Assembly (NCBI GenBank): GCA_000965745.1
Contig: CP009479.1
Location: forward strand, 1,600,001-1,664,000
Length of the DNA: 64,000 bases
Direction: 5' to 3'
From: an uncultured archaeon
GTDB lineage: Archaea; Thermoplasmatota; Thermoplasmata; Thermoplasmatales; Thermoplasmataceae
Of this stretch, positions 10,237 to 38,257 are shown piece after piece; the first letter of the stretch is position 1, and every line of letters starts with the position of its first letter. A program made the translations under genes and the position numbers. The notes below the pieces were generated by a model. It searched no databases, was not told the origin of the DNA, and saw only the letters and a program-made list of their open reading frames with translations.

Positions 10237-10308
10237 GAAGGGCGACCACCCGTTAAGATGATCGCCCCTCTAAATAATTAGTTTGCACAAACAAAACAAA
10301 CAGGAATG

Positions 10309-10339
10309 TGGATTTGTGTATACTGCATATACAAATCCA
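10309..10339. terminator. 13-bp inverted repeat between convergent ORFs
   Basis: TGGATTTGTGTAT-actgc-ATATACAAATCCA. Confidence 0.4.
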
Positions 10340-10575
10340 TTTATTTCAGCCCGATACGCATGATTGCCTCCAATATCTCTTCATTGCCTCGCTGTCAAGT
10401 TGGTACTCGAGTTCCTTGACCGCAAGCAGGCCCCTCTTTATCAGCTTCTGGTACTTGTCCATTGCATCTTGAAGGAGTTCCTGGATCTTGATCTCCGAAA
10501 TTTTCAGCCCCTTCCTTACACCATCGTAAAATACCTTTCCCGCGTTGCTCATGCAACACAATCCGGTTTGAGCAC

Positions 10576-10702
10576 GTGACCTCCTCTCCCAGCTTTCGCA
10601 GGGAACCTCCTGTTCCAACGGTTGGAGGAATCTCCACAGGCTTGAATCCCCTCGGTCCCATGCTAATCCACCTGACTTTACGGACGCAGGCACGCATGGA
10701 GC
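10576..10702 (-). ncRNA. orphan IS605/TnpB right-end (omegaRNA-like) element, copy 1
   Basis: Homologous to 38110-38257; ends in a hairpin plus GAGGAGGTCAC; no tnpB. Confidence 0.6.
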
Positions 10703-10979
10703 AATATGCTATCTGACCACTTTCACGGCCTTCAGACGTTCCCTTTGGTTCTTCCAGATCATGTTTATATATCTCTCTGGGCCATGCATGGGATGTTCCA
10801 CACCATAGCTTGATGTAGGCTTCAACTTCTGCCCGATGATTTGCTCGAGCGTTCCACCATTTATCTTCAACCCCGGGGCTTCGATCTGTGACATATAAAA
10901 TCCGGGTATGTGTGGAAACTTTTCCCGGGATATTACAGAGGATTAAGTTTATCGTCTAAGATAAATTCTATAGCGGATC

Positions 10980-37974: not shown

Positions 37975-37995
37975 CCCTTTTTTTAACAAAATTGA

Positions 37996-38257
37996 GCGGA
38001 AAATCCCCTTCCGAAAGGGAGGGGATGAAAGCGAAATCTTTTCCTACTTTCCAGAAATAACACGCGGCTCACCAGCAGACAGAATGGAAGAAGGGTCGGA
38101 TAACGTGTAGCTCCATGCGTTCCTGTGTCCGTAAAGTCGAATGGATTAGTGTGGAGGGCAAAGTACCCCCGGGCCGGAGGGAATTCATGCCTGCGGAGGT
38201 TCCGCTGGTAACCGTCGAAGCAGGAAGCCCCTTTCGAAGGATAGGGGAGGAGGTCAC
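37996..38257 (+). mobile_element. non-autonomous IS605-family element (PATE/MITE) carrying omegaRNA-like right end
   Basis: LE hairpin ATCCCCTTCC-GAAA-GGGAGGGGAT after TTGA; RE GAAGCAGGAAGCCCCT..AGGGGAGGAGGTCAC; no transposase. Confidence 0.75.

Follow-up and report, generated by a model that had tools for sequence, protein, structure and literature searches.

A most likely dead remnant of a protein-free IS605-family mini-element in a Thermoplasmatales archaeon, and its intact relatives with predicted omegaRNAs

Omega RNAs (omegaRNAs) can be carried by palindrome-associated transposable elements (PATEs), as in Geobacillus stearothermophilus (PMC10055086), and a known case of the PATE type is VNG_R0052 of Halobacterium salinarum (PMC4615843). 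Stand-alone omegaRNAs act in trans (PMC10691335). In the structure of the ISDra2 TnpB omegaRNA, a pseudoknot stacks on stem 1, which is gripped by TnpB (PMC10097598). The TnpB7 reRNA of Sulfolobus islandicus is associated with a TTTAA motif and has its guide after TCAC (PMC11043419).

The window analysed here is a 64,000-nucleotide stretch from the genome (2.23 Mb, one contig) of an uncultured archaeon of the Thermoplasmataceae. A first-pass annotation had aligned minus-strand positions 10702-10576 with 38110-38257 and read both as diverged copies of an omegaRNA-like RNA. The alignment was recovered (68% identity, BLAST E 1.5e-10 against the genome), and the named motifs, the three pairings, the differing terminal hairpins, the missing left end and the flank at 10575-10556 were all as described. 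The homologous stretch is thus real, but its limit was placed wrongly at 10702 and homology reaches 10726. We call this stretch copy A and its longer counterpart copy B. Copy A is most likely a dead remnant of a PATE-type mini-element of ~271 bp, which can neither move nor, most likely, guide. The features concerned are as follows.

10576-10726, minus strand: copy A, a truncated and internally deleted mini-element with part of the 5′ domain, a damaged predicted omegaRNA scaffold and the right end
10656-10701, minus strand: helix P2 of the 5′ domain in copy A (10701-10694 pairs with 10663-10656)
10609-10640, minus strand: predicted omegaRNA core stem of copy A (10640-10636 with 10613-10609)
10576-10609, minus strand: right end of copy A, with the TnpA guide tetramer, a hairpin (10605-10586) and terminal TCAC (10579-10576)
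10556-10575, minus strand: insertion-site host flank, the would-be guide of copy A
10727-10937, minus strand: decayed left end of an IS481-like element, occupying the place of the mini-element's left half
37982-37986, plus strand: TTTAA transposon-adjacent motif (TAM) preceding copy B
37987-38257, plus strand: copy B, intact, 271 bp, with the left-end hairpin (38004-38025), a spacer, a ~190-nt structured RNA from about 38066 and the right end

The family behind copy A is a protein-free mini-transposon of the IS605 family, that is, a PATE, which is an already known class. Besides copy A and several other fragments, the genome holds nine intact copies of 269-271 bp, and all nine lie at unrelated flanks, directly 3′ of TTAA or TCAA, with TCAC at the right end. 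None has a target duplication, and none carries tnpA or tnpB. At the left end, TTAA or TCAA is followed by C, and the tetramer AAAT precedes the left-end hairpin, while at the right end the tetramer GAAG is followed by a hairpin and then by the terminal TCAC. Tetramers before the end hairpins recognise the cleavage sites in IS608, and by this rule AAAT and GAAG fit the cleavage sites TTAA and TCAC. The intact copies also share their left end, at 94-95% identity over 60-64 nt, with two intact IS605 elements that encode a Y1 TnpA (140 aa) and a TnpB (410 aa). An IS605 TnpB of this genome is encoded at G000:1393624-1394856.

Matches to the element occur in 28 of the 103 genomes of the Thermoplasmataceae and in 14 of the 20 genera. 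The matches with names belong to Thermoplasmatales metagenome-assembled genomes and one Micrarchaeota bin; the family motif was not present in the viral contigs searched. Of 85 covariance-model matches, some of them duplicates, 78 have a left end upstream, and the only match closer than 400 bp to a tnpB is the IS605 element's own end. Insertion sites are mostly intergenic. In one locus (L010:1284-3062), an intact copy sits exactly 3′ of TTTAA inside a HEARO RNA (RF02033, 73.8 bits) of an iscB element, with the remainder of the HEARO RNA and the iscB gene beyond it. The interrupted RNA thereby confirms the boundaries of the mini-element, and the locus presents one OMEGA RNA parasitised by another. 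Rfam was scanned with the window at E up to 1 and with three loci at E up to 10, and no family for the element emerged; nor was a description of it found in the literature searched, most subscription papers lying outside that literature. An IStron, in which a group I intron is combined with IS605, was considered and rejected: no intron model matched in the Rfam scans, the element terminates in C rather than G, and its insertions are mostly intergenic.

Many diverged copies of the family decay at random, and several show rearrangements. The copy at L111:1385-1664 (G000:358855-359129) is a mosaic, with the 5′ end and docking loop of the copy-B clade and a middle part from the other subfamily, which suggests inter-copy recombination that may keep the long-range pair described below matched. 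An identical 68-nt deletion between CATG repeats occurs at three places in another genome (G018; L123:494-710, L124:1436-1636). These deletion derivatives have lost half of the 5′ domain and do not keep stem 1, but retain both ends and the long-range helix, and they suggest that TnpA does not need this domain. Two unrelated host proteins (P0002 and P0005), a PF02113 peptidase and a GNAT acetyltransferase, have the element read in frame into the N-terminus predicted for them; these readings are probably start-codon miscalls.

An alignment of 41 copies gave ten helices, for which covariation was judged by pair counts, slid controls and Fitch counts. Together, 93.4% of the cells in these helices are paired, against 38-47% in the slid-partner controls, and two-sided changes occur in 22 of 53 pairs. 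The earlier view that the copies form a family with a conserved RNA structure is therefore borne out. Eleven pairs differ between the two main clades, and ten of them are still paired, seven through a double change; this between-clade covariation is good, but below R-scape grade. Many G-U pairs are conserved. Single-sequence folding of the two copies was no better than that of shuffles (z 0.53 and -0.66), so that the structure rests on the family alignment.

The last ~100 nt, which comprise stem 1, the core stem and the right-end hairpin, are homologous to the tnpB-overlapping ends of the local IS605 elements. They align with such ends from 28 or so relatives, and their translations resemble the tail of TnpB. 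Stem 1 is paired in 93.6% of cells; its loop pairs in turn with the final bases of the element (93.8% of cells), and one pair of the resulting pseudoknot is C-G in the mini-element and A-U in the IS605 ends. Judged by stem 1 together with the pseudoknot, the intact members have the predicted structure of a TnpB omegaRNA and copy A does not. A TATA-like box precedes the first helix by 26-29 nt in about half of the sequences, although the expanding clade of the genome has a poor version of it. In IS605, a like box lies at the same distance (26-29 nt) from the tnpA start codon, and this agreement suggests that the RNA of the mini-element may be transcribed from the tnpA promoter.

Intact copies carry an extra pseudoknotted domain of ~95 nt on the 5′ side of the scaffold. 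The shared extra 5′ hairpin that had been pointed out earlier does exist, as helix P2, but it is one part of this larger domain. The domain and the scaffold are about equally conserved (0.87 and 0.88; spacer, 0.60), and the fold of the domain is compact and doubly pseudoknotted, with many conserved unpaired purines. The first bases of the domain form a long-range helix with a loop inside the core stem. Most copies have GCTGG opposite CCAGC in this helix, and the copy-B clade has ACCAG opposite CTGGT; three compensatory changes occur in the helix, in one lineage. In tnpB-linked omegaRNAs, a variable hairpin takes the position of this docking loop. Of the compensatory switches in the 5′ domain and the long-range helix, most are single tree events (Fitch count 1-2), and with so few independent switches their formal significance is weak. 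No counterpart of the domain was found in the Rfam scans mentioned above or in the TnpB loci aligned, and no associated gene was found. Among 401 genomes of the class, it was found in three families of the order and nowhere outside the order. The motifs ACAGAA and GTGAAA presumably resemble the paired T-loops of RNase P and T-boxes, an idea that was dropped because only one base separates them. A conserved peptide was also rejected, since indels shift the frame and no TnpB was found.

Copy A has decayed a good way from this pattern. It matches profile positions 112-283 of the family (nhmmer E 2.8e-38) and scores 127 bits with the covariance model, against 189-229 bits for intact copies; its closest relative is an intact copy elsewhere in the genome (G000:553814-554002; 138 of 151 aligned bases identical). 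The first ~115 bp of the element, including the left end, are missing, and there are internal deletions of 18, 1 and 3 nt. The 18-nt deletion, near 10657, leaves P1 without its 3′ strand and stem 1 without its 5′ strand (0 of 5 pairs) and truncates the lower end of P2. In copy A, P2 still encloses pseudoknot P4's 3′ strand together with a small hairpin. The 3-nt deletion removes from the core-stem loop the docking loop of the long-range helix, whose bases in intact copies pair with the 5′ end of the RNA. As a result, no pairs are left in the left end, P1, the long-range helix, P3 or stem 1. The core stem (5 of 5 pairs), the right-end hairpin (6 of 6) and the pseudoknot loop bases are intact. 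Substitutions private to copy A disrupt P4 and P5 and fall on bases that 39-40 of the 41 copies share, including the guide tetramer, which is GAGG in place of the family's GAAG. Two private changes preserve pairing, one of which converts U-G to U-A.

The differences between copies A and B had been taken for compensatory changes, but they are mostly inherited subfamily states. CCTGT/ACAGG and CCTGC/GCAGG are two separate one-sided departures from a U-G pair found in 37 of 41 copies, and in the case of CCATGC, which faces GTGTGG in the second copy, that copy has two one-sided G-U wobbles. The states of P2 and the terminal hairpin that differ from copy B occur in the subfamily of copy A, and are therefore inherited and no sign of selection on copy A itself.

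Upstream, the IS481-like remnant has a terminal repeat that begins with TGT at 10937, followed by the eroded start of a transposase gene. It shares 69% DNA identity with G000:1787109-1787306, and its peptide is 43% identical over 49 aa to a 301-aa rve/HTH_32 transposase. Within this remnant, about 40 nt upstream of copy A, lies a TATA-like stretch (10772-10764, minus strand) that could drive a read-through transcript. Eleven of 12 contigs from this species have copy A in unaltered form, but the region around it is 99.6-100% identical among those contigs, so that its fixation shows no selection; the locus was not found in three congeneric genomes. At the end of one metagenome contig (L219:1-30), copy A begins with ~27 nt of the copy-B type, through either misassembly or recombination. 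An open reading frame of 68 aa (10346-10552, minus strand) begins 23 nt past the right end of copy A, and gene calls from other samples of the species include it; no homologue was found in 102 family genomes or in the protein database. A long, near-perfect inverted repeat of 14 pairs (10308-10340), terminator-like in form, lies just downstream of this frame. The window also holds a tRNA gene at 504-588 on the plus strand (Rfam, 47.5 bits).

A different guide had been noted for the second copy. Since the family is mobile, each such 'guide' is the flank of an insertion site of the mini-transposon. No guide match next to TTAA or TCAA in the genome was better than that of random sequence for the flanks of any of the copies; the best had four mismatches in 16, equal to random 20-mers. 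The flank of copy A gave no target in the viral contigs, and in 100 relatives it gave four one-mismatch matches against three control matches. The TAM-adjacent matches that the first-pass annotation suggested looking for in the genome and its viruses were therefore not found above chance, as should be the case if every guide is directed only against the empty site of its own element. The nuclease-dead partner proposed there was likewise not found in the genome: three full-length TnpBs all keep the catalytic D-E-D motifs, and the other TnpB matches are fragments or unrelated. With neither a TAM-adjacent target above chance nor a nuclease-dead TnpB, a domesticated, TldR-like guide was rejected. 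A more distant TnpB of 370 aa (L004:1402-2514; 29% identical, catalytic motifs intact, different ends) has an IS605-type right-end hairpin just upstream.

We consider the following account, from the life of intact elements to the death of copy A, to be probable as a whole. TnpA of co-resident IS605 elements would peel off intact elements as single-stranded DNA and paste them 3′ of TTAA or TCAA without duplication; the shared ends, and the multi-copy spread of near-identical copies at unrelated flanks, point to such mobilisation. The promoter that drives tnpA in IS605 would probably yield an RNA of ~190 nt plus flank, whose 3′ 100 nt are predicted to serve as a TnpB omegaRNA scaffold and to load IS605 TnpB in trans. 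On the published homing model, the loaded TnpB would cut the element's own empty site after excision, and the element would be restored there by recombination. The 5′ domain would dock on the scaffold where tnpB-linked omegaRNAs carry their variable hairpin; our preferred guess is that it shields the 5′ end and lends stability to an RNA that does not arise from a tnpB mRNA by processing. Copy A would have lost its left end and promoter to an IS481-like element and a deletion, and stem 1 and the docking loop to two further deletions. Without these four parts it can neither move nor, most likely, guide.

Other explanations bear on copy A alone, on the whole family or on the 5′ domain. It is very unlikely that copy A still works, in trimmed form, as a stand-alone guide that is immobilised, supplied with a promoter that arose in the IS481 remnant and used by a trans-encoded TnpB. 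Its complete core stem and right-end hairpin, its pseudoknot loop bases, the private change from U-G to U-A, the TATA-like stretch upstream and its identity in 11 contigs may indicate some activity, but the 5′ strand of the stem gripped by TnpB in the ISDra2 structure is gone, together with the long-range helix and left end, and the private changes break P4 and P5 and strike near-invariant bases. The near-identity of the whole region, the three congeneric genomes without the locus and the absence of above-chance targets in the genome, the 100 relatives and the viral contigs also count against the working stand-alone guide of the first-pass annotation. We judge it unlikely, if less so, that the conserved structure acts as single-stranded DNA, the excised circle folding for TnpA, or simply rides a recent burst, with no functional RNA in either case. 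The RNA strand is also the strand on which TnpA acts, so that strand asymmetry cannot separate the two readings, and the few independent compensatory events and the random decay of diverged copies would suit this explanation; the many conserved G-U pairs, and the deletion derivatives that lack half of the domain yet occur at three places, argue against it. So does the pseudoknot between stem 1 and the 3′ end, which is kept with a compensatory switch and is a feature of TnpB RNAs that, to our knowledge, TnpA does not need.

For intact copies only, since copy A lacks the 5′ strands of the domain, one may also suppose that the 5′ domain has an activity or partner of its own, as a self-processing ribozyme, the binding site of a second protein or a decoy that sequesters TnpB. 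The compact, doubly pseudoknotted fold with its unpaired purines, a conservation equal to that of the scaffold and the replacement of the variable hairpin of tnpB-linked RNAs would agree with this, but the Rfam scans of the window and the three loci gave no family and no associated gene was found, and we regard it as rather improbable. A wider reading of the intact elements, as a new self-contained class of omegaRNA whose docked 5′ domain matures the RNA, changes the action of TnpB or recruits a partner, is tentative and somewhat doubtful; if it were true, the mini-element would live as a molecular parasite on TnpA as well as TnpB and possess an RNA device of its own. The least credible explanation is that the shared core is merely a decayed tnpB 3′ end, the outcome that would have undone the first-pass annotation. 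The last ~100 nt are indeed homologous to tnpB-overlapping ends and give TnpB-like tail peptides, but the ~95 nt upstream, without counterpart in the aligned TnpB loci, are no decayed tnpB frame: their read-through peptide matches no TnpB and only four proteins, two of which, on inspection, are host genes with the element read into the N-terminus, and frame-breaking indels are common while the helices persist. For the 5′ domain, this reading appears already largely refuted.

Copy A itself represents ordinary decay, and the family behind it matters modestly. Since the genome encodes the cognate TnpA and TnpB and natural variants number in the dozens, the family provides a ready test of whether omegaRNAs borne by PATEs hijack TnpB in trans. 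The uncatalogued RNA domain may reveal by what means a guide RNA can be stabilised, or can mature, in the absence of its parent mRNA, a question that bears on the design of compact TnpB editors.

PATEs that encode omegaRNAs and stand-alone omegaRNAs are already known, and the new part is the extra 5′ domain. The PATEs of G. stearothermophilus and H. salinarum are likewise protein-free derivatives of IS200/IS605 elements, with both ends, mobilisation in trans and an omegaRNA-type right end. The interior of the mini-element differs from theirs in that it is no simple deletion product, but includes the ~95-nt domain, conserved in at least 14 genera, with its long-range helix to the scaffold. Like stand-alone omegaRNAs, the mini-element family has a guide scaffold without an effector and the effector elsewhere in the genome, but the function of stand-alone omegaRNAs has been shown by experiment, whereas that of the mini-element is predicted, and copy A lacks stem 1. 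Rfam HgcC (RF00062) and sot RNAs are archaeal and likewise terminate in an IS605 right-end hairpin; the likeness of HgcC is weak and at the 3′ end (17.5 bits, E 1.8, far under the gathering score of 50), and its model leaves the 5′ domain unmatched. The ISDra2 omegaRNA and the S. islandicus reRNA share with the mini-element stem 1 and its pseudoknot, the core stem, the right-end hairpin and a guide beyond the end, and the TTTAA motif and TCAC end are as in S. islandicus TnpB7. Both of these RNAs overlap tnpB and are cut from its mRNA, whereas the RNA of the mini-element is unlinked to tnpB, and the 5′ region that is disordered and dispensable in ISDra2 is replaced here by a conserved and paired domain.
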